A stretch of 64,000 bases of DNA from Pseudomonadota bacterium (GTDB taxonomy: Bacteria; Pseudomonadota; Gammaproteobacteria; Steroidobacterales; Steroidobacteraceae): contig JBDTSP010000006.1 in assembly GCA_039931065.1 (NCBI GenBank), forward strand, positions 126,161 to 190,160, in the 5' to 3' direction. Shown piece by piece: positions 9,258-31,669 of the stretch. The notes under the pieces were generated by a model. It was given only the letters and a program-made list of their open reading frames with translations. It was not told the DNA's origin and searched no databases. The position numbers and the translations under genes were made by a program. The stretch's first letter is position 1. Every line of letters begins with the position of its first letter.

Positions 9258-9295
9258 GGACCCACCTGAAAGGTACGTCCGCGTTTCGAGGAGTC

Positions 9296-10006: not shown

Positions 10007-10022
10007 TGCACTACATGTGCCA
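10007..10022 (-). promoter_or_regulatory. sigma-54 -24/-12 promoter (P1) for the PEP-CTERM gene
   Basis: The minus strand reads TGGCACATGTAGTGCA against the consensus TGGCACG-N4-TTGCW. GG and GC have the exact spacing. The -12 GC is about 47 nt upstream of ATG 9961. Confidence 0.7.
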
Positions 10023-10041
10023 TGGCAGAAAATCCTTATCT

Positions 10042-10054
10042 AATCAACTACTTG
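10042..10054 (+). promoter_or_regulatory. IHF-consensus site between the upstream motif and P1
   Basis: AATCAACTACTTG matches WATCAR-N4-TTR at every specified position. It lies in an AT-rich patch between the 10087-10103 motif and the -24 element. Confidence 0.4.
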
Positions 10055-10086
10055 TCCGTCCGGGCGTCTAACTAGATGCGGCCAGG

Positions 10087-10103
10087 TGTCAAGCCCGCCG
10101 ACA
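10087..10103 (-). promoter_or_regulatory. candidate enhancer-binding-protein site (UAS) for P1
   Basis: TGTCaagcccgccGACA (TGTC-N9-GACA). Its centre is 86.5 bp from the -12 GC of P1. The same motif sits at the same distance at two other sigma-54 promoters. Confidence 0.5.
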
Positions 10104-10114
10104 TCCGGGAGGCG

Positions 10115-11089
10115 TCAAGATGACAATAATCCTCGCGCCCTTAAGACGTTACGCATCGTCGTGAACCGGAAATCGCCCAGCAGCTGGCGCAGACGGCCCT
10201 CGCATTTCGAGAGATTCGTGTAGTGGCGGAAACGCGAAACCAGGCTGGTCTTCACCCGGGGTTGTTCGAAATCGATCTCCCACGGGTGCAGGTAGAAGGT
10301 GAATGGCAGGCGTTCCTGCTCGTTGATGCTGCGCAGGCCCGCGCGGGTGAACCAGTACGGCAGCAGGCGGAAGTAGCCGCCGCCCGACACCGGGACGCGC
10401 AGCGGCCCGACGGCCGCGGTGGACATCGGAAACTCGGCGATACGGCCACCCGAGGGAGCGTGCACGAATCCCGGTGCCCGGTCGGCACCCGGCATCCCGT
10501 AACGGTCGTGGCGGACCGGAAAGATGGACGAGTCATAAGCGAAGCCCTGCTCGATCAGGGTGTCGAGCGCCCAGCGCGAACGCGGCGTGATCGAAAAGCT
10601 GGCGGCGCGATAACCGATCACCGGCAGGCCGGTCAGGTCCTCGAGCAGCGCCTTGGAACGGTGGGTCTCTTCGGCGAAGACGGCCGGAGTTTGCCGGTAG
10701 ATGAGTTCATGCGAATAACCATGGCAGGCCACTTCATGGCCAAGCGAGGCAATACGTTTGACCAGCTGCGGCACTTTGTCCGCGACCCAGCCGAGCACGA
10801 AAAAAGTCCCCTTTATGCGCCGCTCGTCGAGCATGGCGAGCAACCGGTCAGTGCTCGCGGCGACGCGCGACTCACGGTCGCCCCAGGTCGAGCGCGGAAT
10901 CGCCGAGGCCAGCGCGGACACGTGGTAATAGTCTTCGACGTCGATCGTGAAGGCATTGGTGACGACCGCCTTCGACTCAACGGCTGAGGGGCCACGGACG
11001 CTGGAAGACGTCTTGGCGGCGTCGTTGACATCGTCGGCTGCAGCGCGCAGTTCAGTCCGCGGCATGGATAAGGTCGCCTTTGAATTCAT
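10115..11089 (-). CDS. polysaccharide deacetylase, XrtA/PEP-CTERM locus subfamily (TIGR03006-like, from memory)
   Basis: AFTIDVEDYYHV, GTFFVLGWVA, GHEVACHGYSHE, SGGGYFRLLPY and FYLHPWE are hallmarks of this subfamily. Confidence 0.85.
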   Translation of the reverse strand: MNSKATLSMPRTELRAAADDVNDAAKTSSSVRGPSAVESKAVVTNAFTIDVEDYYHVSALASAIPRSTWGDRESRVAASTDRLLAMLDERRIKGTFFVLGWVADKVPQLVKRIASLGHEVACHGYSHELIYRQTPAVFAEETHRSKALLEDLTGLPVIGYRAASFSITPRSRWALDTLIEQGFAYDSSIFPVRHDRYGMPGADRAPGFVHAPSGGRIAEFPMSTAAVGPLRVPVSGGGYFRLLPYWFTRAGLRSINEQERLPFTFYLHPWEIDFEQPRVKTSLVSRFRHYTNLSKCEGRLRQLLGDFRFTTMRNVLRARGLLSS

Positions 11090-11128
11090 GGATCGACGGG
11101 TCTCGTTTCAGGGAGTCAATCTGCATAA

Positions 11129-11144
11129 AGCACTGTTCGTACCA
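11129..11144 (-). promoter_or_regulatory. sigma-54 -24/-12 promoter (P4) for the deacetylase gene
   Basis: The minus strand reads TGGTACGAACAGTGCT with correct GG-N10-GC spacing. The -12 GC is about 41 nt upstream of ATG 11089. Confidence 0.6.
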
Positions 11145-11207
11145 ACTTTATTTATGCCAGTTTTTTCAGTAGCTTAAAGCTCATGCCTCCATTAATACAC
11201 CAATTCC

Positions 11208-11224
11208 TGTAAATGGCACCGACA
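11208..11224 (-). promoter_or_regulatory. candidate UAS for P4
   Basis: TGTAaatggcaccGACA (TGTA-N9-GACA). Its centre is 85.5 bp from the -12 GC of P4. Confidence 0.45.
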
Positions 11225-11344
11225 GACCTCCGGCCGAGGCCCATCGGGGACAACCCTGGCGGCGGTAATTGGGCCTGTCGAACGGCGCACGGAAAAGCGC
11301 CGGGCCGCACTGCAATATCCGCCATCACCCGCGGCTTCTGACCC

Positions 11345-12604
11345 ATGTATCGGATCGAGTGGATTGAACGACTGAAGCTCGGCGGCGTACCCGGCGCGCC
11401 TGACGCAACCCCCCTGCGGGTGAGCCCGGTCGTGATCAGCCTCGGGTTCACCAGTCTGTTCACGGACATATCGTCCGAGATGGTCAACAGCCTGTTGCCG
11501 GCGTGGCTGGTCCTGCACCTGCACATGAGCCCGATGCAATTCGGCGTCATCGACGGCCTCTACAACGGGTTCGCGATCGCGCTGCTGAGCCTCGCGGCCG
11601 GTTATCTGGCCGACCGCAGCGCGCGCCAGAAGGAAGTCGCGTTGGCGGGTTATTCGCTGTCCGGCCTGTGCAAGTTGCTGCTGCTCGGTGTCGGCGCGAC
11701 CTGGGGCTGGATCCTGCTGGTGGTTGGGCTCGACCGTGCCGGCAAGGGTATTCGCGCCGCGCCGCGCGATGCGCTGATCTCGCTCAACACGCCGCCGGCC
11801 GCCTACGCCATGGCGTTCTCGGTTCATCGCGCGATGGACGCATGCGGCTCATTGTTAGGTCCTATCACAGCCTTTGCATTGCTCGCGCTGCTACCCGGCG
11901 CCTACGACGCCGTCTGGGTGACCAGCTTTTTCTTCGCTGTGATCGGGGTCGCGGTGTTGTGGCTGTTCGTGCCGAGCGCCACGGCATTGGTCGCCGCGGC
12001 CCACTCCGCCGCTGTGACGCGGCCCGCCTGGTCGCCGTGGAAATCGCGCCGCTTCCTCGCGCTCACCGCGTGCGGCGCGCTGCTCGCCGGCACCACGATC
12101 AGCGACGGCTTTCTGTACCTGCTGCTGCAGCAGAAAAGCGCGGCTCCGACAGGTTTCTTCCCGCTGTTCTACGTGGTCACCGCCGCGGCCTACATGTTGC
12201 TGTCGATACCGGCCGGACGACTGGCCGATCGCACCAGCCGCAGCCGCGTGTTCCTCGGCGGCTATGCGGTGCTCGTGGTCCTGTACATCCTGCTGCTGTT
12301 CGTCGACCGCGTGAGCACCGTCGAACTGGTCGGCTGCCTGATCCTGTTCGGGCTTTTTTACGCCGGCACCGAAGGCATCCTGATGGCGCTCGTCAGCGTG
12401 GTGATTCCGCCCGCGCATCGCACCAGTGGCATCGCCATCGTGGGCACGGCGATCGGCATAACCAAACTACTGTCGTCGGTGGCTTTCGGCGCCTTGTGGC
12501 AGTGGATCGGCATACGCGGCGCGGTGATCACCTTCGTATTGATCCTGGGATTGGCGCTGGCGGTTTCGCTCGCGCTCATGAGGGCGACCGACAATGACTC
12601 GTAG
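11345..12604 (+). CDS. MFS transporter
   Basis: About 12 predicted hydrophobic segments. The motif GYLADRSARQK and the overall pattern are typical of the MFS_1 family. Confidence 0.85.
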   Translation: MYRIEWIERLKLGGVPGAPDATPLRVSPVVISLGFTSLFTDISSEMVNSLLPAWLVLHLHMSPMQFGVIDGLYNGFAIALLSLAAGYLADRSARQKEVALAGYSLSGLCKLLLLGVGATWGWILLVVGLDRAGKGIRAAPRDALISLNTPPAAYAMAFSVHRAMDACGSLLGPITAFALLALLPGAYDAVWVTSFFFAVIGVAVLWLFVPSATALVAAAHSAAVTRPAWSPWKSRRFLALTACGALLAGTTISDGFLYLLLQQKSAAPTGFFPLFYVVTAAAYMLLSIPAGRLADRTSRSRVFLGGYAVLVVLYILLLFVDRVSTVELVGCLILFGLFYAGTEGILMALVSVVIPPAHRTSGIAIVGTAIGITKLLSSVAFGALWQWIGIRGAVITFVLILGLALAVSLALMRATDNDS

Positions 12605-13745
12605 ACCCGCCGTCACTTTCGCGATCGTGTGTGTCGTCGCCGCGGGTGGTCTCGCCGCCTATCTACTTCACGCCGGCAAACGCATGCACCCGGCACCGGC
12701 CGCGCCCTCGCCTGCCGCAGCCGCTGCGCCCGCCGCACCGGCGGAAACCGAGTCCACAGTCACCGCCACTGACTCACCACCCGCTGCGCCCGCAGCCTCA
12801 GCCGCGCCAGCAGCGGCCGAATCGACTCCTTCAGCCCCTCATGGCGCGGTCGCCGCGCCCAGGAGCCAGCGCCTGTTTTTCCGCTACAACGGCGTCGACA
12901 ATCACTACGGCCGGGTCGCATGGGTGGAAACCGCCAATCTCGCGGACGTGCATTTCGTGGATTCACTGCGTTGCGAAGTCGTGCACGTGTCCGGCGGACA
13001 CGGCATCTGCCTGAGCGCGGAGCGCGGCGTATTCACGACGTACGCGGCGACCTTGTTCGACGCGCGGACTTTCGAGCAGCGCGGCACTTTCGCGCTCAAG
13101 GGAATTCCGAGCCGCACCCGCGTCTCGGCCGACGGCACACTCGCCGGACTCACGGTGTTCGTCTCCGGACACGGCTATTCCACGCTCGACTTCTCCACGC
13201 AGACGCTGCTGATAGATTTCGCGAGTGGTTCGGTACTCGCGGACCTCGAGAACTTCAAGGTCACGCACGACGGCGTGGCGATCGACAATGCGGATTTCAA
13301 TTTCTGGGGCATCACGTTCACGCCCGATGCGAAGAATTTCTTCGCCACGTTGTCGACCGGCGGCAAACACTACCTGGTGCGTGGCGACATCGCCGCGCGC
13401 AGCGCCATCGTCATCCATGAAAACGTCGAGTGCCCTTCCCTGTCGCCCGACGCGCGCCGCATTGCGTACAAGAAACGCCTCATGGTCGGCAATCGCGTGA
13501 TCTGGCAATTGCACGTGCTCGAATTGTCGAGCGGGCGTGAAATCGCGCTGTCGGAGAAGCGCAGCATCGACGATCAGCTCGAGTGGCTCGACAATCGCCA
13601 CGTCCTGTACTCGGTGCCGAGTGCCGATGACGGGTCGAGCCCGAGCACCGATGTCTGGGAAGTGGCCGTCGACGCCAGAAGCGCACCCCAGCTCTTCCTG
13701 CGCAACGCGTATTCGCCCGCGACCGCCCGCGGCGCCGCGCGCTGA
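12594..13745 (+). CDS. membrane-anchored protein with Ala/Pro-rich linker and TolB/PD40-like beta-propeller region
   Basis: N-terminal TM helix VTFAIVCVVAAGGLAAYLL, followed by a PAPAAPSPAAAAAPAAPA linker. A PD40-like motif LSPDARRIAYKK is present. It overlaps the MFS gene by 11 nt, suggesting an operon. Confidence 0.65.
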   Translation: MTRRPAVTFAIVCVVAAGGLAAYLLHAGKRMHPAPAAPSPAAAAAPAAPAETESTVTATDSPPAAPAASAAPAAAESTPSAPHGAVAAPRSQRLFFRYNGVDNHYGRVAWVETANLADVHFVDSLRCEVVHVSGGHGICLSAERGVFTTYAATLFDARTFEQRGTFALKGIPSRTRVSADGTLAGLTVFVSGHGYSTLDFSTQTLLIDFASGSVLADLENFKVTHDGVAIDNADFNFWGITFTPDAKNFFATLSTGGKHYLVRGDIAARSAIVIHENVECPSLSPDARRIAYKKRLMVGNRVIWQLHVLELSSGREIALSEKRSIDDQLEWLDNRHVLYSVPSADDGSSPSTDVWEVAVDARSAPQLFLRNAYSPATARGAAR

Positions 13746-13776
13746 AAAAAAAACGGGGCAGCCGAAGCTGCCCCGT
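13745..13776 (-). terminator. intrinsic terminator of the giant gene
   Basis: The minus strand reads ACGGGGCAGC-TTCG-GCTGCCCCGT followed by T9. It lies 25 nt downstream of the stop at 13801. Confidence 0.8.
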
Positions 13777-13800
13777 TCGATCTGCTTTAAGGTCTGCGCG

Positions 13801-16800
13801 TCAGTTGCGCGTTACGGTCAACACATCGGTCCGCGTGTTACCGGCGGCATCACGCGCCGTGACCGTGAGGATGTTCACGCCGGTCAACACCGAGATCGTG
13901 CCCGTCGACCACGACGTCGTACCCGTGGCATTGCCGCTGCCGCCACGGTTGTTGGTCCAGCTGACCTGCGTGACCGCGACGTTGTCGGAGGCCGAACCGC
14001 CGAGCGTGATCGTCGAGGCAGTCTGCGTCCGCGTCGAATTGCTGGTGGGTGACGTGATCGTGATCGACGGCCGAGTGGTGTCCGTGAAGGTCACGGTCAA
14101 CGTATCCGTCTGCGTATTGCCCGCGGCATCGCGCGCGGTGACCGTAAGGACGTTAGAACCGGTCTGCAACGCGAGATTGCTGACCGACCAGGAGGTGGTA
14201 CCCGTGGCGGTGCCACTGCCACCGCGGCTGTTCACCCACGTGACCTGCGTGACGGCGACGTTGTCGGAGGCCGTGCCGGAAAGCGTGATCGGTGAAGCCG
14301 TGACCGCGAGCGTGGTCGCACTGGTCGGGCCCGTGATCGTCACCACGGGCAAGCTCGTGTCCGGGTTGTACGTGACGCTGATCGAATCCGTGCCCGTATT
14401 GCCGGCCGCATCGCGCGAGCTGACCGTGAGCACGTTGACGCCCGACTGCAGCACGATGCCGCTGACGGTCCATGCCGTGGTGCCCGACGCGGTGCCGCTG
14501 CCGCCGCGGTTGTTGGCCCACGTGACCTGCGTGACGCCGACCGCATCCGATGAGGTGCCGCCGAGGTTGAGCGAAGCCGCCGTGACCGTGGTGCTCGATG
14601 CGCTGGTCGGCGATGTAATCGTAACCACCGGCGCCGTCGTGTCCGGCGTGTAAGTGACCGTGAGGATGTCCGTACTGGTGTTGCCGGCCGCGTCACGCGC
14701 GGTGACGGTGATCACGTTCGAGCCGGTCAGCAGCACGATGCCACTCGCCGACCACGCAGTCGTGCCGGTTGCCGTGCCGCTGCCACCGCGATTGTTCACC
14801 CAGGCGACTTGCGTGACACCCACCGCATCCGAAGCCGTTCCACCGATATTGATCGGAGTTGTCGCGACCGTCGTGGTCGCGGAGCTTGTCGGTGAAGTGA
14901 TCGTCACGGAAGGCGCCGTCGTGTCCGGTGCGTTGTAGGTCACGGTGAGCGAATCGGCGCTGCTGTTGCCAGCCGCGTCGCGCGCCGTGACCGTGAGGAT
15001 GTTGGCGCCCGACTGCAGGACGACGCCCGAGACCGACCAGCTGCCGGTTCCCGTGGCGTTGCCGCTACCGCCGCGATTGTTTGACCAGGAGACCAGCGTG
15101 ACGCCGACCGCATCGGTGGCGGTGCCACCGAGTGCGAACGGCGTGCTGGTCACCGTGGTGGTCGTGGCGCTGGTCGGCGTGGTGATCGTGACCACCGGCG
15201 CGGTCGTATCCGACGACCCGCCGCTGGTGTTGAACACCACGTCCACCCAGTAGTTTTCACCGTTGTACGTGTCGGTCGGGAACACGCTGCTGCTGCCGTA
15301 CTTGTACAGGCCGTTGGAACCGCCCGAACCGTCCTGCGGCGCAAGCAACGGACCGCTCGTCACGCCGCTGGTCGTGAAGTAGTTGTCGTCGCCCGTGTAG
15401 AAGCCCGAGCTCGTGTGATACGAAACGACGTAGTCCGTGTTCGCCGTGAGCGCCACCGGCGAGGCCAGGGTCTGCACCTGCCATCCCGACGCGCTTTCAC
15501 CCGCGAACGTGACCTGTCCTAACAAGGTGCCGCTTGCGCTCCACAGGCTGCCGACATGCGTGCCGGTATTCTGCGAGTGCTTGAAGAACCGCAGGGCCGT
15601 GACGTTGCCGGCGGCGCTGGTGCGGAACCGCACGCCGAGCTCGACCGAGTTCGAGTCCGCGTCCACGCCACCGGAGGGCGTCTCGGCGGGCCAGATCGAG
15701 CACGGGCAGGCTGCGCCGCCGACCGTGAACGAAACCGTCGTCGGCGAGCTCTGCAGGTTGCCGCTGTCGTCGACCGCACGGACACGGACCGTCTGGGCTC
15801 CCGTGGTCGGCGTCGTCCAGCTGTAAGACCAGGTGCCGCGACCCGTGGCCGGATGCCACGTGGTACCGCCATCGGTCGACACTTCGACACCCGCGACCTG
15901 ACCACCCACGTCGCTCGCGCTGCCGCTGATGACGAGACCGTTCTGCGGGACATTGGCTCCCGCGACCGGCGCGATGATGGTCACCGTCGGCGCTGCGCTG
16001 TCCGACGAAGGACTCTGGGCCGAGAGGCCCGCCTGCAGCGAGGCCGGCTGTACGTTCATGTCGGCGAACAGGTTCACCGTCGCCTGCTGCATGACCAGGC
16101 TGACCGGCGTGCCTGCGCGATCGTGATTCGCGTCGAGACCCCAGGCCCACTGCACCGTGCCGGCGCCGAACACCCGGGCGCCGCTCGCGTGCTTGTACAT
16201 CGTCAACGCATGGTTGGCGGTGTCCGAGGCGTAGGTCGAACCGAAGTCCTGGAGCTTGTCGACGTTGCTCACGGTCGTATCCGACAGGCGGAACAGACCG
16301 GCCGGGCGAGCGCCGTTGTCGAGATCCGAATCCCACTCGTACCCAAGCGTGCCGTTCGGCAGCGTCAGCGTGTTCGTGCCCGTGAGATTCGCGGCAGCAG
16401 TGCCGCGCCACAGGCGCAGCTTGCCTTCAGCGGCCGGGATCACGATCGCCGACGTTCCGGAATTCACCGTGAAGACCGTGCCGGTCAAACCGTTTTCCGG
16501 GCGGCCGCCATCGGACGGCGGGCTGAAGCGCGGATCGCGCCACGTGCCGGTCCACTCGGCGCTCGGATCGAGCTTGCCGTTGAAATGCGTCTCCTTGTAC
16601 GAGACCAGCGTGCGGTAAGGCGTACCCGAACCGTCGATGCTGTTCTCCCAGCGGGTCTTCCAGAACACTTCGTTGCCGCTGAAGAACGCCATGTTGACGC
16701 CCGCTGCACGCGCGGCTTCGACGTTGGCGCGCTGCTGGCCGGACCAGTACTCGTCGTGGCCGGTCGAGATGAACGCGCGATGGCTGGTCAGCAGGTTGGC

Positions 16801-19800
16801 GGCACGATCCGTGTCGACACCCGTGATGTACGTGACGTCGTAACCGTTCGACTCGAGCCAGCGGATCATCGGGTACTCGGCGTTGAACACCCAGTCCTGG
16901 CCACCGGCTTCGCCACGCGTGGCGAACGGACGGTTGTAGCTCACCTTGTAGGCGCGACCCGGGTTGGTGCCGGGCGAACCCACGTACAGGCTGTTGCCGC
17001 CGTAGGTGTTGTAAGCCTGCCAGGTGGTGTCCGAAGTCTGGAAGACCATGTCCGAGGTGCTCGCGTCGTTGCGGACGATGAACGCGATGTGGCTGGCACC
17101 TCCCGTGTCGGTACGCACGACTTTTGCGAAGTAGACGCCGGAGGTCGCATTTGCAGGCACCGTCCATGAGCCCGAAACCGCCCAGTTGCCGCAATCGATG
17201 AGACCGGTCGAAGGCTGCGTCAGGCAGTTCGGCTGGTTCTGCGGCAGGCTCGCCGTCGGGTTGACGGTCGTGATCTTGCGCGCGCCCAGGCCGCCGTAAT
17301 AACCCATGCGGTAGATGTCGAAGCGGTAGTTAGTGGCATTGGTATCCACCTTGAACTGCACCGTGCCGCCGCGGTTCACGCTGATCTGCGTGGCGAAGCC
17401 CTGGATGCTGGCGTCGCCGGCGCCGTTGATGTCCCACTCGCTCGACGGGTTACCCGTCAGGCAGTTTTCCGCGGTGATCGCGTTGGCGGCGCACGGGCCA
17501 CCGGCCGCGGCCGTGGTGAACGACCAGCTGTCGTTGGCGATCAGTGCATTGTTGGCCGCGTCCTTGACGCGCGGATCGGTCGCGCCACCGCGCACAGTGA
17601 CCGTGTAGATGGCCGAGTTGACCAGCGCGCTGGTCGGCGTGAGCGTGGCGACGTTGCCCGAGTACGAAACGCTCGCCGGGATCAACGTGTTGCCGGCGTT
17701 ACGCAGCTCGATCGTCGAGCTGTTGATCGTGCTGGCATTCATCGCCTCGCTGAAGGTCACCAGGACCGCGCCGTTGAGCGCGACATTGGTGGCACCGCTC
17801 GCCGGCTGACGCAGCGTGATCGTCGGGGCCGTCGTGTCCGGGCCCGTGACGTTCTGGAACACGAGGTCGACCCAGTAGTTGGTCGCGCCGAACGAGCTGG
17901 TCGGGAAACCGCCGCTCGCGCCGTAGGTGTACACACCGTTGCCGCCCGCCGCCGGGTCACTCAACGCGTGCAACACGCCGTTGTCGACGCCGGTCGAGGC
18001 GAAGAAATTCGCGTTGACGGAGTAGCCGCCGTTCGGCGCGAAATACGAGGCCACGTAGGTGGTGTTCGCATCGATCGCAACCGGCGACGAGAACAGGACT
18101 TCCTGCCAGCCAGTCGCGGTTTCGCTGCCGAAGGTCGCCTGTGCGAGCAAGGTGCCGGTCGAAGTCCACAACTTGCCGACATGTGTGCCGGTGTTGCTCG
18201 GGCCCTTGTAGAAGCGGATGCCCGCGACGCTGCCACTGGTGTCCGTGCGGAACTTCACGCCCAGCTCGACGGCACCCGTATCGCTTTCGGACGCAGTCGC
18301 AGGCGTAGTCGTGCTGGGCCAGAGGGTGAGCGTGGTGACCGACGAATTCGTGGTCGTGAACGACCAGCTGTCGTTCGCCGCCAGCGCATTCAACGCAACG
18401 TCCTTGACCCGCGGATCGGTCGCACCGCCGCGCACTGTCACCGTGTACACGGTGTTCACCGCGAGCGCAGCGCTCGGGGTCAGGGTCGCGACGTTCGTGG
18501 CCGCGTTGTAGCTGACCGCGGCCGGAACCAGGGTCACGCCGTTGCGCAGTTCGATTGAGCTCGTGCTGATCGTTGCGGCGCTCATTGCCTCGTTGAAGCC
18601 GACAGTTACGGTGGTCGCGAGCGCGACTCCCGTGGCGCCCGAAGCGGGCGTGCGCGCAGTGACCGTGGGCGGCGTCGTGTCCGCGGTCGGCGTGTACGTG
18701 ACGGTCAACGTGTTGGTCGAGGTGTTGTTGGCCGCATCGCGCGCCGTCACGGTGATGACGTTGGTGCCGGACAGCAGCGTGATGTTGGAGGCCGTCCAGG
18801 ACGTCGTGCCGGCGGCGGTACCCGAACCACCGCGGTCATTGGTCCAGGAGACCTGCGTGACGCCGACGTTGTCGGAGGCCGAGCCGCCGATCGCGAGCGG
18901 AGTCACGGTCGTGCTGTGGGTCGGGGTCGCGACCGGGGTAGAAATGGTCACGGTCGGCGCGGTCGTGTCGGCGACACCGCCCGAGGTGGTGTCGAACACC
19001 ACGTCCACCCAGTAGTTAGTGCCCTGCCAGGTGGAGGACGGGAATACGCTGCCCGGAGCGTAGGTGTAGACACCATTGCCGCCGGCCGCCGCGGTGCTGA
19101 GCGCGTGCAACGCGCCGTTGTCGACTCCGGCCGAAGTGAACTGGCCGGAAGTGGCCGAGTACCCGCCCGCGGGGGCGTGATAAGAGGCGACGTAGGTCAC
19201 GCCTGCCGAGACCGGCACGGCCGTGGTGAACAGGACCTGCTGCCAGCCGCTCGCCGTTTCGGTTGCGAAAGTCGCCTGCGCGAGTGCCGTCCCCGTGGAC
19301 GACCACAACGTGCCGACGTGGACACCGGTGTTCGAGGCGCCCTTGTAGAAGCGGATGCCCTTGATGAATCCATTGACGTCGCTGGTGAACTTCAGGCCGA
19401 GTTCGACGGACGTCACGTCCGAATCCGACGCGATTGCCGGGGTATCGGTCGCGCTGAAAATCGTGCACGGGCAGGTCGGGGCCGAAGCCGTCGTGAACGA
19501 CCAGGTGGCGTTCGCGGCCATGGCATTGCCCGACATGTCCTTCACACGCGGGTCGCTGCCGCCGCCGCGCACGGTCACGGAATACGTGGCGCCGCTCGAG
19601 AGTGCGCTCGAGGGCGTGAACGTCGCGGAAAGTGTGCTGGCGCTGTAGGCGACGCTGCCGGCGACGAGCGCGTTGCCCGCGTCGCGCACTTCGAACGTGC
19701 TACTGGTGACCGAGGCCGGATCGAGCGATTCGTTGAAGGTCGCGCGGATGGGCGTGACCGACGCGACGCCGGTCGCACCGGCGGCCGGAAGGCGCGTGGT

Positions 19801-21702
19801 GACGGTCGGGCCGACCGTGTCGATCGCGTAGCTGGCCGAGTAGCTGCCGCTCGCGGCCGGGAACACCGCGTACTCGACGCCCTTGACGTTCATGATCTCG
19901 TAAGTGACGTCGGCGCCGTTGCGCAGCAGGCTGGTGAGGAAACGCGTCCCGGAGCGCCACGGCAACATGCCGGAGAGGCCATTTGCGCCCGTCGCCTGCG
20001 TGACCGTGAAACTGAGCACGTTCGACGTGAAGCTCATCGAGCCGAAGGTCGAATTGCCGCGGCCATCGAGCCAGGTGAGCATCTGCCGGCCGGAGACGAC
20101 CGGAACGTTGCGCGCGAGTGCCGCTTCAACCGTCGTCGTCGACTGGTCCATGAAAGGCTGATCGGTGTGCGCGTTGATCGTGTAGACGCCGTACTGTTCT
20201 TCCGCGCCGGTGGCGCGATCAAGCAGGGTATTCGGGGTGAACGGGTATTGCTGATCGGACTCGTCGGTCATCTGTGTGACCGCCTGGTAGACGTCGATCA
20301 GGCTGCCGTCGAGGTCGGCAAAACGCATCGGCATGGCCGAGCCGGTGAAGTGTCCGGGCGTGTTCTGCACCCAGTCGCCGGGCCAGTAGTAGTAAGACGT
20401 ATCGAGACGGATGCCATTGGCGAGCTGCACTTTCGCGGCCGACGCCCAGTCGCTCCACACGATGCAGTGATGACGTTCGGTGCTGAGCGGCGAGACGCTG
20501 GCGAACTTGTTGAAGAACGCGAGCTTCTGGTCCGTGTATCCCTGCGCGAGCGAGCTCTGTGTGAAGTCCACGCAGGTGCCGCTTTCGAAGGTGTTGACGT
20601 GCAGGCCGATTTCGAACCCTTGTGCCTGGTACGCCGAGGCCTGGGTGTTGGTCAGCGCGCCGTCGGTGAACACGTAGGAAGTGCCGCGGATACATTCCCA
20701 GTTCGCAACGGAGCAGCCCGCGGGGCTCATCGCGAGGAACTGGTCGAAGCGCTGCGCCGTGCCGCCGCCCTGCGCGGTGAACAGGAAGCCGTGGTCATCG
20801 CCGCTCATCAGGACGACCGCGCGATGCGCGTTCGGGAAGTACCAGAAGCGCGGCAACGGCTTGCGGTCCGAATTCATGTCGGTGATCAGGTTTGCGAGGA
20901 AGCGCTGCTGTTCGTCGGCCTGCGGAATCGCGACCTTGCTGCGATTGATCCAGTCAGGCTGCGGATCGCTGGCCGACGCGCCGAAGAACATGTCGTCGGA
21001 GCGGCGCGGCGCGATGCCGTCGCGTTCCTGGCCTACCCAGGCCGGATTGCCCTGGCGCGTGTAAACGATGGAAGTCGCGAGGTCGAACATGAAAGCCGCG
21101 GCCTGGCCACCGCTCGCGCCGACGCTGCGCAGCGTGACCGCGGGGTTGGCGGTAGCGGTCGTCGCGGTCGAATACAAGGTGGCGATCGAGGTCGCCCCGG
21201 CGAGTGTGCTCAGCTGGGCACTGCCATGGAACTGCAGCGTCTGACCGATGATGCCGGCACCGGACTTGGTGGAATTGTCGACAAGTAGATAGCCGTTGGA
21301 GAGCGTCGTCGCTCCCGAATTGATGCCGAGCAGGCTGGCCAGCTGCGGCGCGGGGTCCATCGCGATCAGGTTGCCACCGGCGGTTACCCAGGTGCTCAAC
21401 ATCGAAGCCTGGGTGGTCGTGACCGACTGCTTCGAGAGGATCACCACGTCATAGTTATTGAGCGTGCTCGCGGTGACGGCGCCGATTTCGGCGACCGCGA
21501 ATTCGTTGAATCCTTCGGTGCGAAGGATCTCGGCGAAGAACTTGCCGAAGTTCTGATTCCCGTTGGTGATGACCAGAATCGGCCCTCCGGGCCCCTGGTT
21601 CGGATCCGCGTGTGCAGCCCCAAGGGGAGCTGTGATCGCGGCCAAAATCAGCAGCAGGGAACGGGCGAAGTTCTTGATATTCATGTTTTTCAAGGATTCC
21701 AT
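13801..21702 (-). CDS. 2633-aa secreted multidomain protein. Order: N-terminal region of unknown function, 3x Big5/SbsA-type Ig, 3x DUF4082, an N,N-dimethylformamidase-large-subunit-like domain, and 7 further Ig-like domains
   Basis: Single uninterrupted ORF. Signal peptide MNIKNFARSLLLILAAITAPLGAAHA. The internal domain repeats are listed as separate features. There is no PEP-CTERM tail; the protein ends ...TDVLTVTRN. Confidence 0.9.
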   Translation of the reverse strand: MESLKNMNIKNFARSLLLILAAITAPLGAAHADPNQGPGGPILVITNGNQNFGKFFAEILRTEGFNEFAVAEIGAVTASTLNNYDVVILSKQSVTTTQASMLSTWVTAGGNLIAMDPAPQLASLLGINSGATTLSNGYLLVDNSTKSGAGIIGQTLQFHGSAQLSTLAGATSIATLYSTATTATANPAVTLRSVGASGGQAAAFMFDLATSIVYTRQGNPAWVGQERDGIAPRRSDDMFFGASASDPQPDWINRSKVAIPQADEQQRFLANLITDMNSDRKPLPRFWYFPNAHRAVVLMSGDDHGFLFTAQGGGTAQRFDQFLAMSPAGCSVANWECIRGTSYVFTDGALTNTQASAYQAQGFEIGLHVNTFESGTCVDFTQSSLAQGYTDQKLAFFNKFASVSPLSTERHHCIVWSDWASAAKVQLANGIRLDTSYYYWPGDWVQNTPGHFTGSAMPMRFADLDGSLIDVYQAVTQMTDESDQQYPFTPNTLLDRATGAEEQYGVYTINAHTDQPFMDQSTTTVEAALARNVPVVSGRQMLTWLDGRGNSTFGSMSFTSNVLSFTVTQATGANGLSGMLPWRSGTRFLTSLLRNGADVTYEIMNVKGVEYAVFPAASGSYSASYAIDTVGPTVTTRLPAAGATGVASVTPIRATFNESLDPASVTSSTFEVRDAGNALVAGSVAYSASTLSATFTPSSALSSGATYSVTVRGGGSDPRVKDMSGNAMAANATWSFTTASAPTCPCTIFSATDTPAIASDSDVTSVELGLKFTSDVNGFIKGIRFYKGASNTGVHVGTLWSSTGTALAQATFATETASGWQQVLFTTAVPVSAGVTYVASYHAPAGGYSATSGQFTSAGVDNGALHALSTAAAGGNGVYTYAPGSVFPSSTWQGTNYWVDVVFDTTSGGVADTTAPTVTISTPVATPTHSTTVTPLAIGGSASDNVGVTQVSWTNDRGGSGTAAGTTSWTASNITLLSGTNVITVTARDAANNTSTNTLTVTYTPTADTTPPTVTARTPASGATGVALATTVTVGFNEAMSAATISTSSIELRNGVTLVPAAVSYNAATNVATLTPSAALAVNTVYTVTVRGGATDPRVKDVALNALAANDSWSFTTTNSSVTTLTLWPSTTTPATASESDTGAVELGVKFRTDTSGSVAGIRFYKGPSNTGTHVGKLWTSTGTLLAQATFGSETATGWQEVLFSSPVAIDANTTYVASYFAPNGGYSVNANFFASTGVDNGVLHALSDPAAGGNGVYTYGASGGFPTSSFGATNYWVDLVFQNVTGPDTTAPTITLRQPASGATNVALNGAVLVTFSEAMNASTINSSTIELRNAGNTLIPASVSYSGNVATLTPTSALVNSAIYTVTVRGGATDPRVKDAANNALIANDSWSFTTAAAGGPCAANAITAENCLTGNPSSEWDINGAGDASIQGFATQISVNRGGTVQFKVDTNATNYRFDIYRMGYYGGLGARKITTVNPTASLPQNQPNCLTQPSTGLIDCGNWAVSGSWTVPANATSGVYFAKVVRTDTGGASHIAFIVRNDASTSDMVFQTSDTTWQAYNTYGGNSLYVGSPGTNPGRAYKVSYNRPFATRGEAGGQDWVFNAEYPMIRWLESNGYDVTYITGVDTDRAANLLTSHRAFISTGHDEYWSGQQRANVEAARAAGVNMAFFSGNEVFWKTRWENSIDGSGTPYRTLVSYKETHFNGKLDPSAEWTGTWRDPRFSPPSDGGRPENGLTGTVFTVNSGTSAIVIPAAEGKLRLWRGTAAANLTGTNTLTLPNGTLGYEWDSDLDNGARPAGLFRLSDTTVSNVDKLQDFGSTYASDTANHALTMYKHASGARVFGAGTVQWAWGLDANHDRAGTPVSLVMQQATVNLFADMNVQPASLQAGLSAQSPSSDSAAPTVTIIAPVAGANVPQNGLVISGSASDVGGQVAGVEVSTDGGTTWHPATGRGTWSYSWTTPTTGAQTVRVRAVDDSGNLQSSPTTVSFTVGGAACPCSIWPAETPSGGVDADSNSVELGVRFRTSAAGNVTALRFFKHSQNTGTHVGSLWSASGTLLGQVTFAGESASGWQVQTLASPVALTANTDYVVSYHTSSGFYTGDDNYFTTSGVTSGPLLAPQDGSGGSNGLYKYGSSSVFPTDTYNGENYWVDVVFNTSGGSSDTTAPVVTITTPTSATTTTVTSTPFALGGTATDAVGVTLVSWSNNRGGSGNATGTGSWSVSGVVLQSGANILTVTARDAAGNSSADSLTVTYNAPDTTAPSVTITSPTSSATTTVATTPINIGGTASDAVGVTQVAWVNNRGGSGTATGTTAWSASGIVLLTGSNVITVTARDAAGNTSTDILTVTYTPDTTAPVVTITSPTSASSTTVTAASLNLGGTSSDAVGVTQVTWANNRGGSGTASGTTAWTVSGIVLQSGVNVLTVSSRDAAGNTGTDSISVTYNPDTSLPVVTITGPTSATTLAVTASPITLSGTASDNVAVTQVTWVNSRGGSGTATGTTSWSVSNLALQTGSNVLTVTARDAAGNTQTDTLTVTFTDTTRPSITITSPTSNSTRTQTASTITLGGSASDNVAVTQVSWTNNRGGSGNATGTTSWSTGTISVLTGVNILTVTARDAAGNTRTDVLTVTRN
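13804..15210 (-). repeat. five tandem ~94-aa (~282-nt) Ig-like repeats at the C-terminus of the giant protein
   Basis: The unit is DTTAPxVTITxPTSxxTxxVTxxPxxLGGTASDxVGVTQVxWxNNRGGSGxATGTTxWSxSxxxLxxGxNxxTVTARDAAGNxxTDxLTVTY. The DNA-level periodicity is visible, e.g. GTGACCTGCGTGAC near 13965, 14245, 14525, 14810 and 15095. A sixth dispersed copy lies at about 18690-18975. Confidence 0.85.
15216..15708 (-). repeat. DUF4082 copy 3 (approximate bounds)
   Basis: CPCSIWPAE...SVELGVRFRTSAAGNVTALRFFK...GWQVQTL...NYWVDVVFN. Confidence 0.7.
16011..17500 (-). other. N,N-dimethylformamidase large-subunit-like (DUF6605-type) domain of the giant protein (approximate bounds)
   Basis: NYRFDIYRMGYYGG, TWQAYNTYGGNSLY, ISTGHDEYWSGQQR and MAFFSGNEVFWKTRWE are, from memory, typical of this family. 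Confidence 0.6.
17850..18335 (-). repeat. DUF4082 copy 2 (approximate bounds)
   Basis: AVELGVKFRTDTSGSVAGIRFYKGPSNTGTHVGKLW...NYWVDLVFQN. Confidence 0.7.
18985..19473 (-). repeat. DUF4082 copy 1 (approximate bounds)
   Basis: CPCTIFSATD...SVELGLKFTSDVNGFIKGIRFYKGASNTGVHVGTLW...NYWVDVVFD. Confidence 0.7.
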
Positions 21703-21757
21703 TGCGGAAAGTCAGCCAACAGAGAGGGGGGCACAACGTTGTGTCCTACCCCCTCCA

Positions 21758-21773
21758 AGCAAAACCCGCGCCA
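21758..21773 (-). promoter_or_regulatory. sigma-54 -24/-12 promoter (P3) for the giant gene
   Basis: The minus strand reads TGGCGCGGGTTTTGCT, the best match in the window to TGGCACG-N4-TTGCW. The -12 GC is about 57 nt upstream of ATG 21702. Confidence 0.7.
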
Positions 21774-22094
21774 ATGTGAGACCCCCGTCACGGGAACCCC
21801 CCTCCCGACCCTCAAACTGTGAGCCGAATCGCAACCTTAGGTGCCCGCCGCAGGCCCGGCGGGGGCCGACGAGGTCCGGATGGCCCCAGACGGATGCGCG
21901 GCGCGGCAAAGCTGTAAAGTTCTCCGACGCAAAATCGGATGCTTGCCGACTTGCGTCGCGCGATATGTGCAACCGCCAGGTGGCAAGAATTTCGACACAA
22001 ACAAAGTGCCAATCGCGACAAGGTGCGACGCCAATCACATACCTATGCTTCGCGCGCCTTCAACGGCTGGCTAGCACAAACACAAGAGGTTCAA

Positions 22095-22571
22095 ATGCCT
22101 GTAGCTGATTCAGTACAACTTGGCGACAACGTGAAGATCTTTCATCCGTCGCTCGTCAACTTGTATGGCTGCGTCATTGGAAAGGACTCGAAGGTCGGCG
22201 CGTTCGTGGAGATACAGAAAGGCGCGACGATCGGTGAGCGCTGCAAGATTTCCTCGCACACCTTCATTTGTGAAGGCGTCGAAATCGAAAACGAAGTGTT
22301 CGTCGGCCACGGCGTGATGTTCACGAACGATCTGTTTCCGCGCGCTGCGAACCCCGATGGGTCGCTGCAGACGGAAGCGGACTGGAAGGTCGAGAAAACC
22401 GTGGTCAAACGCGGCGCTTCGATCGGCTCCAACGCCACGATTGTCGCCGGCATCACGATCGGCGAGTTCGCGCTGATCGGCGCGGGCGCGGTGGTGACGA
22501 AAGACGTACCGCCCTATGCGGTGGCGGTCGGTGTTCCGGCCAAGGTGATCGGCGATACGCGCAAGCGTTGA
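22095..22571 (+). CDS. left-handed beta-helix N-acetyltransferase of 3-amino sugar nucleotides (WbpD/WlbB/QdtC-like)
   Basis: Hexapeptide repeats and a ...GAGAVVTKDVPPYAVAVGVPAKVIG tail. Start ATG 22095 has RBS AAGAGG. The track start 21939 is an upstream extension. Confidence 0.85.
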   Translation: MPVADSVQLGDNVKIFHPSLVNLYGCVIGKDSKVGAFVEIQKGATIGERCKISSHTFICEGVEIENEVFVGHGVMFTNDLFPRAANPDGSLQTEADWKVEKTVVKRGASIGSNATIVAGITIGEFALIGAGAVVTKDVPPYAVAVGVPAKVIGDTRKR

Positions 22572-22618
22572 GTGGTAGTTAGTCAGGCATTTTTTCAAAG
22601 GGACTCGAGGAACAACAA

Positions 22619-24771: not shown

Positions 24772-24796
24772 ACCCAACCTGCAGGAAGCGCATCGC

Positions 24797-25435: not shown

Positions 25436-25474
25436 AGAAATGAATTTGAATGGAATTGTCTTGAGGGATCGCGA

Positions 25475-28459: not shown

Positions 28460-29706
28460 GTTCAGGAATCGCCATCCAGGCCCGCGGCCTCGGCAAACGT
28501 TATCTCCTTGGCGCAGCCGGAGCCCGCCACAACTCGCTGCGCGACGCATTGGTGTCGGGCGCGAAGTCGTTGATCGGTGCCAACAAGAAAACCGCCTTCA
28601 AGGAATTCTGGGCGCTCAAGGACGCCAACTTCGACATCGGCCACGGCGAAAACGTCGGCATCGTCGGGCTGAACGGCGCGGGCAAGAGCACTTTGCTCAA
28701 GATGTTGTCGCGCATCACCGAGCCCGCCACCGGCTCCGCCCGCATCGAAGGCCGCCTGGGCGCGTTGCTCGAAGTAGGTACGGGTTTCCACGGCGAACTC
28801 ACCGGCCGCGAGAACGTCTTCCTGTACGGCTCCATCCTCGGCATGCGCAAGGAAGAAGTACGCGCGAAGTTCGACGCCATCGTGGCGTTCTCTGGCATCG
28901 AGAACTTCATCGACACGCCGGTCAAACGATATTCGAGCGGTATGTACGTGCGCCTCGCCTTCTCGGTTGCGGCGCATCTCGAACCCGACATCTTGCTGCT
29001 GGACGAAGTTCTGGCCGTCGGCGACCTGGCCTTCCAGCGCAAGTGCATCGAACACGCCAAGGAGCTGCAGAAGCGCGACGCGACCATCCTGTTCGTCTCG
29101 CACAACATGTTCAGCATCAAGACGATGTGCGACCGGGTGATCTACCTGCGTCAGGGTCAGATCCAGTTCGACGGCAGCGTCGAAGGCGGCATCGAGCTGT
29201 ACGAAAAGGATTGCCGCATGGCGGCGCTGGCCTGGACAGAAACCAAGCCTGAGGAATGGCCGATCTTCATCACAAACTGCGAGCTGCGCGATGAACGTGG
29301 CGCGCCGAAGACCTTGTTCGAATTCGGCGAACGCATGCACGTGCGCCTGCACTACGACACGCGGCAGACGGTCGAAGATCCGAATTTCATCGTCGCGTTC
29401 GTTCGCTCCGATGGCGTCGCCGCGTGCAACTACAGCACCGAGCTCGACGGGCTGAATCTGGGCCAGGTCAACGGCGCCGGTTACATCGATCTCGAATTGC
29501 CGCCGCTCAAGCTCGTTTCCGAGATGTACACGATCTCGGTGATCATCCGCGAAAAGGGTTTCCAGCAAATCCTGTGCGGACAGATGGCCGGCACGTTCCA
29601 CGTCAAACACGACCTGTTCAACACGCACTTCGGTGTGTTCCACGAACCGGGGCAATGGTCGGCGAACGAGACCCCCAACGCAAAGGTGGCCGGTGCCAAG
29701 CGTTGA
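28456..29706 (+). CDS. wzt: polysaccharide export ABC ATP-binding protein with C-terminal Wzt-type carbohydrate-binding domain
   Basis: Walker A GLNGAGKST, signature YSSGMYVRLAF, Walker B ILLLDE. About 160 extra C-terminal residues look like a beta-sandwich. ATG 28456 overlaps the wzm stop (ATGA). The track ORF start at 27700 is an off-frame extension. Confidence 0.9.
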   Translation: MSSGIAIQARGLGKRYLLGAAGARHNSLRDALVSGAKSLIGANKKTAFKEFWALKDANFDIGHGENVGIVGLNGAGKSTLLKMLSRITEPATGSARIEGRLGALLEVGTGFHGELTGRENVFLYGSILGMRKEEVRAKFDAIVAFSGIENFIDTPVKRYSSGMYVRLAFSVAAHLEPDILLLDEVLAVGDLAFQRKCIEHAKELQKRDATILFVSHNMFSIKTMCDRVIYLRQGQIQFDGSVEGGIELYEKDCRMAALAWTETKPEEWPIFITNCELRDERGAPKTLFEFGERMHVRLHYDTRQTVEDPNFIVAFVRSDGVAACNYSTELDGLNLGQVNGAGYIDLELPPLKLVSEMYTISVIIREKGFQQILCGQMAGTFHVKHDLFNTHFGVFHEPGQWSANETPNAKVAGAKR

Positions 29707-30742
29707 CGTCGTAATCCCCTGTTACAACTACGCGAAGTACCTGCCACGTTGCATCGACAGCGTCCTCTCGCAACAAGGCGTCGAGGTTCGCGCGCTCATC
29801 ATCGACGACTGCTCGACGGATGACACACCCGCGGTCGGCGCGGCACTCGCACAACGCGATTCCCGCGTGTTGTACCGGCGTCACGCGAAGAACATGCGGC
29901 ACATCGCGACCTACAACGAAGGGCTCATCGATTGGGCGCAGGCCGACTATGTCCTGCTGCTTTCCGCCGATGACCTGCTGGCGCCACTCGGCCTGCAACG
30001 CGCGACCCGCGTCATGGAAGAAAATCCGAACGTGCACATGACGTACGGCATGGCGCTACTGTTCACCGAAGACGCGCAAGTCACGGACCTCCCCGCCGAT
30101 GCCAGCGCTGCCACTCACGCAATCGTGCGCGGCGCGGACTTCCTGCGCCGCTCGATCGTGGGAAATCCGGTGCCCACGCCCTCGGCCATCGCGCGTACGC
30201 GCATCCAGCACAAGGTCGGCGGATATTCCGCGGCGCTGCCGCACACCGCCGACATGGCCATGTGGATGCGGTTCGCCGTACAGGGTGACATCGGCGTGGT
30301 TCCCCAGGTGCTCGCTTACAAGCGAACCCACGCCACCAACATGAGCATCGCGTACGCCGCGCAACCGCTCGGCGATTTCCGCGAACGGGTCGATGCCTGT
30401 GACGAACTGCTGGGGAACGACGCCGGCGCTGGCGCGCCGACGCGGATCGAAGCGCGCGAGATCATCGGGAACCAGGTGTTCTGGTGGGCGAGCTCGTTGT
30501 TCGACGCCGGTGAAACGGCTGGTTGCGACGAGGCACTCAAACTCGCCGCGGAACTCGCGCCCAGTCTGCGCAGCTCCCCGGCCTGGCGGCGCCTCAAGTT
30601 GAAGCGTGTATTACCCGCCCCCGTGCGCCGCGCCATCGTTTCGCTTTCCGATCGCGCGCGCGGCACGGCATCGCCGGCCGCTGCGCTCTCGCCGACCCGC
30701 CAGATCGGCTGGTGGCCGGAAAATACAGCCGGCGCGAAGTAA
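29693..30742 (+). CDS. family 2 glycosyltransferase
   Basis: VDVVIPCYNYAKYL, DDCSTDDT and LLSADD motifs. GTG 29693 is preferred over the track start GTG 29633, which would overlap wzt by 74 nt. Confidence 0.8.
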   Translation: MPSVDVVIPCYNYAKYLPRCIDSVLSQQGVEVRALIIDDCSTDDTPAVGAALAQRDSRVLYRRHAKNMRHIATYNEGLIDWAQADYVLLLSADDLLAPLGLQRATRVMEENPNVHMTYGMALLFTEDAQVTDLPADASAATHAIVRGADFLRRSIVGNPVPTPSAIARTRIQHKVGGYSAALPHTADMAMWMRFAVQGDIGVVPQVLAYKRTHATNMSIAYAAQPLGDFRERVDACDELLGNDAGAGAPTRIEAREIIGNQVFWWASSLFDAGETAGCDEALKLAAELAPSLRSSPAWRRLKLKRVLPAPVRRAIVSLSDRARGTASPAAALSPTRQIGWWPENTAGAK

Positions 30743-30750
30743 TCGGTCGG

Positions 30751-31410
30751 TCAGACCGCTCGCCGGAAGCGCGTCCGCGCGCTCACCGCTACGCCTAACA
30801 AACCGAGCGCGAACAACGCCAGCGTGCCGGGTTCGGGGACGGCCTTGTAGAGGTAGACGCCTTGAGAGATTTCACGAATGTTCGTAGCGAGGCCGCCCAT
30901 GATCGTAAAGCTGTCCGAGCCGAATGGCGGGCTGTCGATGATGCCGCTGATGCCGTGGACCAGCCCGTCGGAACCGACATAGGTCCCCCGCGTGAGCCCA
31001 TTCAGGATGTTTTCAAAGGCCGGGCCCCAGTCGAACTGGATCGTGGGCTCGAGCACGCCGAATGCGGTTGCGCCGTGACCGGAAGCCATCGGAAACGCGG
31101 CGGAGTAGCCGTTGAGCGCCCCGGGCGGCAATCCGGCCACTTCGTAGAAGAGATCGCGGACGTCGTCGCGCGACGCCCAGGTGTAACCGGTGAGATCGAC
31201 GTCCGAACTCGAGCCGTTCGACGCCAGCACTCCGGAGCAATCGCCGGTGGCCGCGCTGCACACCGCGGAGGTGTCGTCCCAGGAGCGATAACGGGTGTCG
31301 TTGACGTCGAGCCATTCGCGACCCGAGGCGTCTATGTAGATAGGACCCGCGAAGGCCGCGCTTCCGACCAGACCCAGCACAGCCAACAGACTTGCCGCAT
31401 TCCTTTGCAT
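30751..31410 (-). CDS. PEP-CTERM sorting domain-containing secreted protein
   Basis: C-terminus VPEPGTLALFALGLLGVAVSARTRFRRAV. Signal peptide MQRNAASLLAVLGLVGSAAFA. ATG 31410 has RBS GAGG. Confidence 0.85.
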   Translation of the reverse strand: MQRNAASLLAVLGLVGSAAFAGPIYIDASGREWLDVNDTRYRSWDDTSAVCSAATGDCSGVLASNGSSSDVDLTGYTWASRDDVRDLFYEVAGLPPGALNGYSAAFPMASGHGATAFGVLEPTIQFDWGPAFENILNGLTRGTYVGSDGLVHGISGIIDSPPFGSDSFTIMGGLATNIREISQGVYLYKAVPEPGTLALFALGLLGVAVSARTRFRRAV

Positions 31411-31441
31411 TTTCGAACCTCGCTTAGTGATCACTTCGTAC

Positions 31442-31457
31442 TGCATCTTTCGCACCA
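31442..31457 (-). promoter_or_regulatory. sigma-54 -24/-12 promoter (P2) for the second PEP-CTERM gene
   Basis: The minus strand reads TGGTGCGAAAGATGCA with correct GG-N10-GC spacing. The -12 GC is about 33 nt upstream of ATG 31410. Confidence 0.6.
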
Positions 31458-31522
31458 ACCCGGAGGCATCGTTGCGCGTTCAGTTGCTTAGCCCGCATTG
31501 CGGAAAAAAAGCGACGCTCACG

Positions 31523-31539
31523 TGTAATAAACCTCGACG
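31523..31539 (-). promoter_or_regulatory. candidate UAS for P2
   Basis: TGTAataaacctcGACG (TGTA-N9-GACG). Its centre is 87.5 bp from the -12 GC of P2. The adjacent inverted repeat GGGCGAA-T-TTCGCCC lies at 31544-31558. Confidence 0.45.
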
Positions 31540-31651
31540 CCTCGGGCGAATTTCGCCCCGGGGTAACGCCTACGCCATTACGCGCCTCATCGAAAACGCG
31601 GCGACGTAGGACTCGCACAACGCGTGCGCGGCATGTGAAGTGCATCACATT

Positions 31652-31669
31652 TGTCGCTTAACGAGGACA
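31652..31669. promoter_or_regulatory. perfect TGTC-N10-GACA palindrome in the 436-bp divergent intergenic region
   Basis: TGTCgcttaacgagGACA. This is the same half-sites and spacing as the E. coli GlrR/QseF site consensus as I recall it. Confidence 0.4.

Follow-up and report, generated by a model that had tools for sequence, protein, structure and literature searches.

The 64,000 nucleotides (nt) of contig JBDTSP010000006.1 analysed here, hereafter called the window, hold a large exopolysaccharide locus of the XrtA type whose closest relatives are uncultured Steroidobacteraceae (Gammaproteobacteria). Four sites in this locus, P1 to P4, are very probably enhancer-dependent σ54 promoters of the "PEP-CTERM box" class. 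They precede two genes for PEP-CTERM proteins, a polysaccharide deacetylase gene and a gene for a giant secreted protein. A preliminary description of the window had proposed, from the -24/-12 elements, that these genes form a σ54 regulon. One common regulon is supported by an activator box at helically phased distances upstream of the elements, a site resembling that of integration host factor (IHF) at three of the four, conserved footprints upstream of orthologous genes, and the lack of σ70-like promoters in the four gaps. The activator box had been overlooked in that description, so that the known PrsK/PrsR "PEP-CTERM box" regulon went unrecognised.

The -24/-12 elements and the genes behind them

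The four 16-mers reported previously were recovered on the minus strand at the same positions, each in an intergenic region ahead of a minus-strand gene:

10007-10022, minus strand: P1 -24/-12 element TGGCACATGTAGTGCA, matrix score 11.2 bits (rank 7), before the PEP-CTERM gene 9296-9961
11129-11144, minus strand: P4 -24/-12 element TGGTACGAACAGTGCT, matrix score 12.1 bits (rank 3), before the deacetylase gene 10115-11089
21758-21773, minus strand: P3 -24/-12 element TGGCGCGGGTTTTGCT, matrix score 17.8 bits (rank 1), before the gene 13801-21702 for a protein of 2633 amino acids
31442-31457, minus strand: P2 -24/-12 element TGGTGCGAAAGATGCA, matrix score 6.7 bits (rank 36), before the PEP-CTERM gene 30751-31410

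The σ54 matrix was derived from 30 elements of related genomes, none orthologous to P1-P4, with a training range of 16.1-26.2 bits, and ranks were taken over about 128,000 window positions. All four elements read TGG...TGC(A/T), with GG and GC 10 nt apart, which is the canonical spacing noted before. The gap between the end of the 16-mer and the ATG is 45 nt for P1, 39 nt for P4, 55 nt for P3 and 31 nt for P2, i.e. 31-55 nt, where 33-57 nt had been given. Transcription is predicted to start near positions 9996 (P1), 11118 (P4), 21747 (P3) and 31431 (P2).

The downstream genes are of the kind described earlier. Those behind P1 and P2 code for PEP-CTERM proteins (PF07589), and theirs are the only PEP-CTERM tails within the window. 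The gene behind P4 encodes a TIGR03006 XrtA-system polysaccharide deacetylase (384 bits, cut-off 276), and that behind P3 a protein in which a signal peptide is combined with DUF4082, Big_5, DMFA2_C and Ig-like domains. As no PEP-CTERM tail was found in this 2633-residue protein, it is by sequence not an exosortase substrate. The genes for the two PEP-CTERM substrates, the deacetylase and the giant protein share the composite promoter structure described below, in support of the proposed regulon.

Taken by themselves, the elements are of unequal quality. When up to three mismatches are allowed, the whole window holds no excess of the consensus TGGCACG-N4-TTGCW (106 sites against 124.5 expected). 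With GG and GC fixed, seven window sites match at least six of the eight other positions. P1, P3 and P4 are among them and sit in the approximately 4% of the window that is non-coding, a share which counts positions 1 to ~2935 as coding (a minus-strand gene for a PAS/GAF/GGDEF protein, see below); the other four lie in coding DNA. P2 matches only five of the eight positions and is equalled by 30 other window sites. With the matrix, only P3 falls within the range of the training sites. The -12 regions of P1, P2 and P4 are weak, reading GTGC or ATGC versus TTGC. A comparison with coding DNA, which had been proposed in the preliminary description and was made here within the window, leaves P3 unmatched but reveals equals of P1, P4 and P2. 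Judged by its own sequence, the σ54 element is thus convincing only for P3, and of the "four good matches" reported earlier P2 is better called poor and P1 and P4 modest.

The absence of an equivalent match from the other intergenic gaps of the window was confirmed: no usable σ54 match was detected there, the best matrix score being at most 3.6, except for a score of 8.3 at 31626-31647 on the plus strand. The latter match (31629-31644 as a 16-mer) was rejected as part of a palindrome resembling binding sites of CRP, of which it represents one half. A further matrix match, at 274-295 on the plus strand, was dismissed because it lies antisense inside the minus-strand PAS/GAF/GGDEF gene. Finally, inspection of the four gaps holding P1-P4 did not reveal σ70-like promoters.

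Activator box, spacing and conservation

Upstream of each of the four elements and on the same strand lies a 17-nt box, (T/C)GTCGR-N5-(T/A)T(T/G)ACA, and between box and element P1, P2 and P4 carry an IHF-like site. The spacers given are those between box and TGG:

10087-10103, minus strand: P1 activator box (motif 1) TGTCGGCGGGCTTGACA, spacer 64 nt
10042-10054, minus strand: P1 IHF-like site CAAGTAGTTGATT, starting 32 nt before TGG
11208-11224, minus strand: P4 activator box TGTCGGTGCCATTTACA, spacer 63 nt
11164-11176, minus strand: P4 IHF-like site TAAGCTACTGAAA
21913-21929, minus strand: P3 activator box CGTCGGAGAACTTTACA, spacer 139 nt
31523-31539, minus strand: P2 activator box CGTCGAGGTTTATTACA, spacer 65 nt
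31478-31490, minus strand: P2 IHF-like site TAAGCAACTGAAC

All boxes begin with (T/C)GTCGR, and their 3' ends read TTTACA in P4 and P3, TTGACA in P1 and ATTACA in P2. The IHF-like motif YAANNNNTTGA starts 32-33 nt ahead of TGG in P1, P2 and P4. IHF recognises the consensus YAANNNNTTGATW, and an alignment of 30 sites anchored at TGG displayed a third conserved element, tAA....tTGA, which fits this consensus. Of 51 related sites, 20 have the start of the motif exactly 32 nt before TGG and 31 have it at a distance of 28-37 nt, the background being 0.47 sites per offset.

A composite pattern was then defined as GTCG-N7-T(T/G)ACA followed, at 30-175 nt, by a σ54 match in at least five of the eight positions. 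The window contains four such composites where 0.02 are expected. In 80 related Steroidobacteraceae loci (1.24 Mb) there are 43, compared with none in the reversed sequences and 0-1 in Markov controls. With a slightly looser scan of the relatives, 30 of 45 composites precede an open reading frame with a PEP-CTERM tail and six precede orthologues of the deacetylase. The spacer lengths show a sharp maximum at 63 nt and minor classes near 52, 74, 84 and 95 nt. Those outside 61-66 nt, 18 in number, keep phase with 63 nt at a period of 10.5-11 nt (mean cosine 0.63-0.75). Such phasing is expected if the activator must sit on one face of the helix.

Two of the related loci, L002 (position 3738, minus strand) and L004 (2391, minus strand), contain a composite with a spacer of 52-53 nt before an open reading frame of 556-581 codons which lacks a PEP-CTERM tail and whose product ends in ...NCTPxALP. 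This gene is another candidate member of the regulon without a PEP-CTERM domain.

Conservation upstream of orthologues, a check suggested in the preliminary description, was seen in the form of footprints at all four sites. At P4, the box, the IHF-like site and GGTACG...TGCT are found at fixed distances in six genomes whose deacetylases are 62-86% identical, the other upstream DNA having diverged. No σ54 site was detected upstream of the deacetylase gene in about 70 more distant genomes, so that the link between P4 and this gene is clade-specific. P1 is conserved in three loci (L001, L002 and L003). At P3, the -24/-12 element lies approximately 55 nt before the ATG in 13 metagenomic loci in which the N-terminus of the protein is at least 69% identical. 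The box is kept 128-129 nt upstream in 12 of these, while the contig of the thirteenth ends too early. Compared to the orthologues, the 139-nt spacer of the window contains an insertion of 10 nt, i.e. one helical turn. More distant homologues of the 2633-residue protein are without the P3 site. At P2, the box, the IHF-like site and TGGyGCGA....TGCA recur with identical geometry in three loci (L135, L139 and L141; 63-87% protein identity) amid diverged surrounding DNA, with no change in the GG, GC and TGC bases. Orthologues likewise conserve the weak -12 regions of P1, P2 and P4. By these sequence comparisons, box, spacing and conservation together place all four sites far beyond chance.

Two further features upstream and downstream of P3 were observed. 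A conserved block at 21980-22011 (minus strand) reads TTGGCAsTTTGTTTGTGTCGAAATTCTTGCCA, with the inverted repeat TTGGCA...TGCCA, and includes a second, distal copy resembling the box:

21981-21997, minus strand: distal box-like copy TGTCGAAATTCTTGCCA upstream of P3

This block may represent either a further activator site or a segment of the divergent promoter of the sugar-modification operon, which begins near 22095 on the plus strand. Downstream of the predicted P3 start site, the G-rich leader 21703-21748 (minus strand) with a small hairpin, GGCACAACGTTGTGCC, looks conserved. A conserved hairpin in this 5' untranslated region was not supported, as its folding energy is no better than that of shuffled sequences (z = +1.15) and covariation is slight.

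Regulators and alternative explanations

Taken together, the composite sites suggest the following mode of action. The membrane kinase PrsK would phosphorylate PrsR, an activator of the NtrC type, whose target would be the 17-nt box, some 100 nt ahead of the start site. DNA bending at the IHF-like site (in P3, at a CRP-like site) may bring PrsR onto the closed complex of σ54 RNA polymerase at -24/-12, and hydrolysis of adenosine triphosphate would open the promoter. As long as the activator is absent, P1, P2 and P4 might be kept silent by their weak -12 regions. Co-induction would extend to two PEP-CTERM exosortase substrates, the XrtA-system deacetylase and the 2633-residue secreted protein, so that matrix components are expressed together. 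What we infer from the arrangement of the sites is the binding of PrsR and of IHF, the dependence on RpoN and the positions of the start sites.

The gene content of the window is in line with an exopolysaccharide locus and comprises genes for a TIGR03108 amidotransferase, stp1/stp2-type glycosyltransferases, a FemAB-family protein, a tyrosine autokinase, a chain-length determinant, a TIGR03027 export protein and PrsT:

61788-64000, minus strand: prsT (TIGR02917), 397 bits at a cut-off of 312, N-terminus cut by the window end

PrsK, PrsR, XrtA and rpoN were not found in the window. In the related locus L144 (region 261-9395), which has the gene order of the window and an export protein 92% identical to that encoded here, EpsB_2 is followed by PrsK (546 bits, cut-off 300), PrsR (708 bits, cut-off 502.6), an XrtA/EpsI fusion, PrsT and the export gene. 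Locus L143 (region 1470-9854; export protein 91% identical) has a similar order as far as gene calls and a Pfam listing tell. Given this synteny and the window ending inside prsT, the genes prsK, prsR and xrtA should lie just beyond its right end.

Several points weigh against P1-P4 being PrsR-activated σ54 promoters. All of the evidence is computational and concerns the genome of an uncultured member of the Steroidobacteraceae. The box pattern was first written from P1-P4 themselves, and the related loci that validate it were chosen by homology to genes of the window. The genes rpoN, prsK and prsR lie outside the window, and their presence is deduced from synteny and from a gene for a σ54-dependent activator at 7822-9192. 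P2 is a poor element (6.7 bits), and none of the training sites scores as low as P1 or P4. At 139 nt here and 128-129 nt in the orthologous loci, the P3 spacer is longer than the maximum of 92 nt given in the original account (PMC1569441). Finally, four loci of the P2 gene family (L136, L137, L138 and L140) are without box and σ54 element, so that such genes can be expressed another way.

The latter loci bear on the possibility that only some of the four promoters are functional and that P2 has decayed, the second PEP-CTERM gene being driven by a σ70 promoter under a CRP-like site. This would agree with the low score and rank of P2 (rank 36) and with the same four loci keeping the CRP-like palindrome. 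However, the P2 box, IHF-like site and -24/-12 element are preserved at identical geometry amid diverged DNA in L135, L139 and L141, and no σ70-like promoter was found in the P2 gap. We therefore regard decay of P2 as improbable.

Slightly less probable still is that the σ54 promoters are real but served by another enhancer-binding protein, for example the GlrR/QseF-like product of 7822-9192. This gene forms, together with that of a kinase (5718-7184), a complete two-component system on the plus strand (5718-9192), which adjoins the P1 PEP-CTERM gene and is convergent with it. The activator scores 613 bits for GlrR, its best family, 239 bits for PF00158 and 364 bits for PrsR, the latter being below the cut-off of 502.6. 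The pair resembles GlrK/GlrR (QseE/QseF). The site known for GlrR, TGTC-N10-GACA (PMC3045617), is similar to the activator box, above all to that of P1, which contains TGTC-N9-GACA. However, the box has N9 and not N10, and the window shows no excess of GlrR-type sites (23 against 25.3 expected), none of them lying at P1-P4. Moreover, PEP-CTERM genes of dozens of genomes are preceded by this box, the phylogenetic profile of the box agreed with that of PrsR (PMC1569441), and a true PrsR is encoded in the syntenic locus of relatives. The only perfect GlrR-type site of the window, TGTCGCTTAACGAGGACA at 31652-31669, lies 195 nt upstream of the P2 TGG beside a CRP-like site and is partly conserved in loci of the P2 family.

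That the four sites are chance GG-N10-GC matches in intergenic DNA is hardly credible: the mismatch-tolerant consensus is indeed not enriched and P1, P4 and P2 have equals in coding DNA, but the excess of composites in the window (four against 0.02), the phased spacers, the position-specific IHF-like site, the four conserved footprints and the association with PEP-CTERM genes in related genomes refute this explanation as far as sequence analysis can.

Besides the activator box, a second kind of site was encountered in the same intergenic regions. TGTGA is a CRP/FNR-like half-site (PMC1635313). The palindrome TGTGA-N6-TCACA with at most one mismatch has four matches in the window, all intergenic and beside PEP-CTERM boxes, where 1.18 would be expected anywhere:

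21818-21833, written for the minus strand: CRP/FNR-like palindrome TGCGATTCGGCTCACA between the P3 box and the -24 element
22024-22039: further CRP/FNR-like palindrome
31634-31649: perfect CRP-like palindrome TGTGAAGTGCATCACA, some 184 nt ahead of TGG in P2
61712-61727: further CRP/FNR-like palindrome

The palindrome at P3 is located roughly where P1, P2 and P4 have the IHF-like site, but about 26 nt further from TGG, and is nearly invariant in 12 aligned sequences of the P3 family. That upstream of P2 is conserved in seven of the eight loci of its gene family. Further, 10 of 18 related genomes have a perfect copy 175-210 nt ahead of the XrtA export gene (loci with a CRP-like palindrome at this gene: L013, L015, L019, L021, L024, L025, L031, L036 and L040). 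A full-text literature search did not retrieve a paper linking exosortase loci to CRP or Clp. The distribution of the palindromes suggests a possible second regulator of the locus, of the CRP/Clp type.

An additional, orphan box is situated between the prsT stop codon and the XrtA export operon:

61760-61776, minus strand: orphan perfect activator box TGTCGAAGTTCTTTACA

No GG-N10-GC element occurs within 175 nt of it. The 145-nt gap in which it lies is approximately 97% identical throughout in L142-L144 (export protein 91-92% identical in L143 and L144), so that in these loci conservation of the box cannot be told apart from that of its surroundings. The box was absent upstream of the export gene in 18 more distant relatives. 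The preliminary description had placed the export operon outside the regulon. This agrees with the missing σ54 element; the perfect box, in turn, means that the operon is perhaps within reach of PrsR.

A speculative extension, which we consider rather unlikely, is that the XrtA/PEP-CTERM locus is wired twice, to PrsR with σ54 and to a factor of the CRP/FNR family, possibly a Clp-like protein responding to cyclic di-GMP. In that case the conserved CRP-like site would replace IHF as the bending element at P3, with the box at 129-139 nt; the P2 gene family would carry a CRP-like site upstream of the σ54 module; and at the export operon, where a CRP-like site and a box occur in the absence of a σ54 promoter, PrsR would act independently of σ54.

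At the opposite end of the window, a long minus-strand open reading frame (positions 1 to ~2935) runs off the left edge. It encodes a PAS/GAF/PAS protein with the GGDEF motif RLGGDEFGLLLE, the domains having been read by eye from the translation. This protein, which adjoins the exopolysaccharide locus, is likely to function in cyclic di-GMP signalling.

Comparison with known systems

Environmental and wastewater bacteria require PEP-CTERM proteins and exopolysaccharide of the XrtA type to form flocs and biofilms, and promoters with a "PEP-CTERM box" serve to switch on cell-surface proteins in bacteria of this kind. Control by PrsK/PrsR and σ54, a prediction made in 2006, has been put to the test in just a few betaproteobacteria in culture. 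To this, the present analysis adds the architecture of such promoters at the level of single bases in an uncultured soil member of the Steroidobacteraceae, with box, IHF-like site, -24/-12 element and phased spacers, and it extends the putative regulon in this lineage to a polysaccharide-modifying enzyme and a giant secreted protein. This helps to predict the regulon from sequence and leaves the current understanding of the system unchanged.

The closest counterpart is the system described by Haft et al. in 2006 (PMC1569441). There, a 17-nt motif 1 ending in TTTACA is followed by a σ54 motif after a spacer of 62.8 +/- 10.6 nt (range 32-92 nt). This "PEP-CTERM box" together with the σ54 motif was reported upstream of 99 of 167 proteobacterial PEP-CTERM genes; the phylogenetic profile of motif 1 matches those of the activator PrsR, the kinase PrsK and the tetratricopeptide protein PrsT; and a few targets other than PEP-CTERM genes were allowed. 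As in that system, P1-P4 consist of a 17-nt box of the TTTACA type followed by the -24 GG and the -12 GC, with a spacer of about 63 nt at P1, P2 and P4, so that the spacers of P1 (64 nt), P4 (63 nt) and P2 (65 nt) fall inside the range given and that of P3 outside. Further common traits are the location of sites before single-gene PEP-CTERM operons with long upstream regions, and the presence of prsT beside exopolysaccharide genes, with prsK and prsR in the syntenic locus of relatives. In contrast to that system, the targets of P4 and P3, i.e. the TIGR03006 deacetylase and the 2633-residue DUF4082/Big_5 protein, are without a PEP-CTERM domain, and a box without a σ54 site precedes the export operon. 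The text of the paper gives the spacer as mean, spread and range and does not mention helical phasing or an IHF-like site.

An experimental counterpart is pepA of Aquincola tertiaricarbonis RN12, whose start site has been mapped and whose dependence on RpoN1 was demonstrated by mutation and complementation (PMC9850573). Both systems share a PEP-CTERM gene, prsT, a -24/-12 promoter and an upstream enhancer sequence, the pepA promoter reading TGGCAC...CTGCTT and the gene being located beside prsT (PMC9850573). They differ in that Aquincola is a betaproteobacterium studied by experiment, whereas the promoters described here belong to an uncultured gammaproteobacterium, have weaker -12 regions and are known from sequence alone.

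Classical promoters of the NtrC/NifA type such as nifH and Pu have an activator site about 100 nt upstream and an IHF bend site in between, depend on the helix face and are weak, remaining silent unless the activator is present. P1, P2 and P4 resemble them in the succession of activator site, IHF-like site and σ54 element. The sequence of the activator box and the target genes are different, and P3 has a CRP-like palindrome between box and -24 element, roughly in the place of the IHF-like site.

The four promoters are accordingly a new example of the known PEP-CTERM-box/σ54 class and not a new system. Modestly new are the two conserved targets without a PEP-CTERM domain, the long and conserved spacer of P3, the explicit phasing together with the IHF-like site, the orphan box, and the conserved CRP-like sites in the same intergenic regions.

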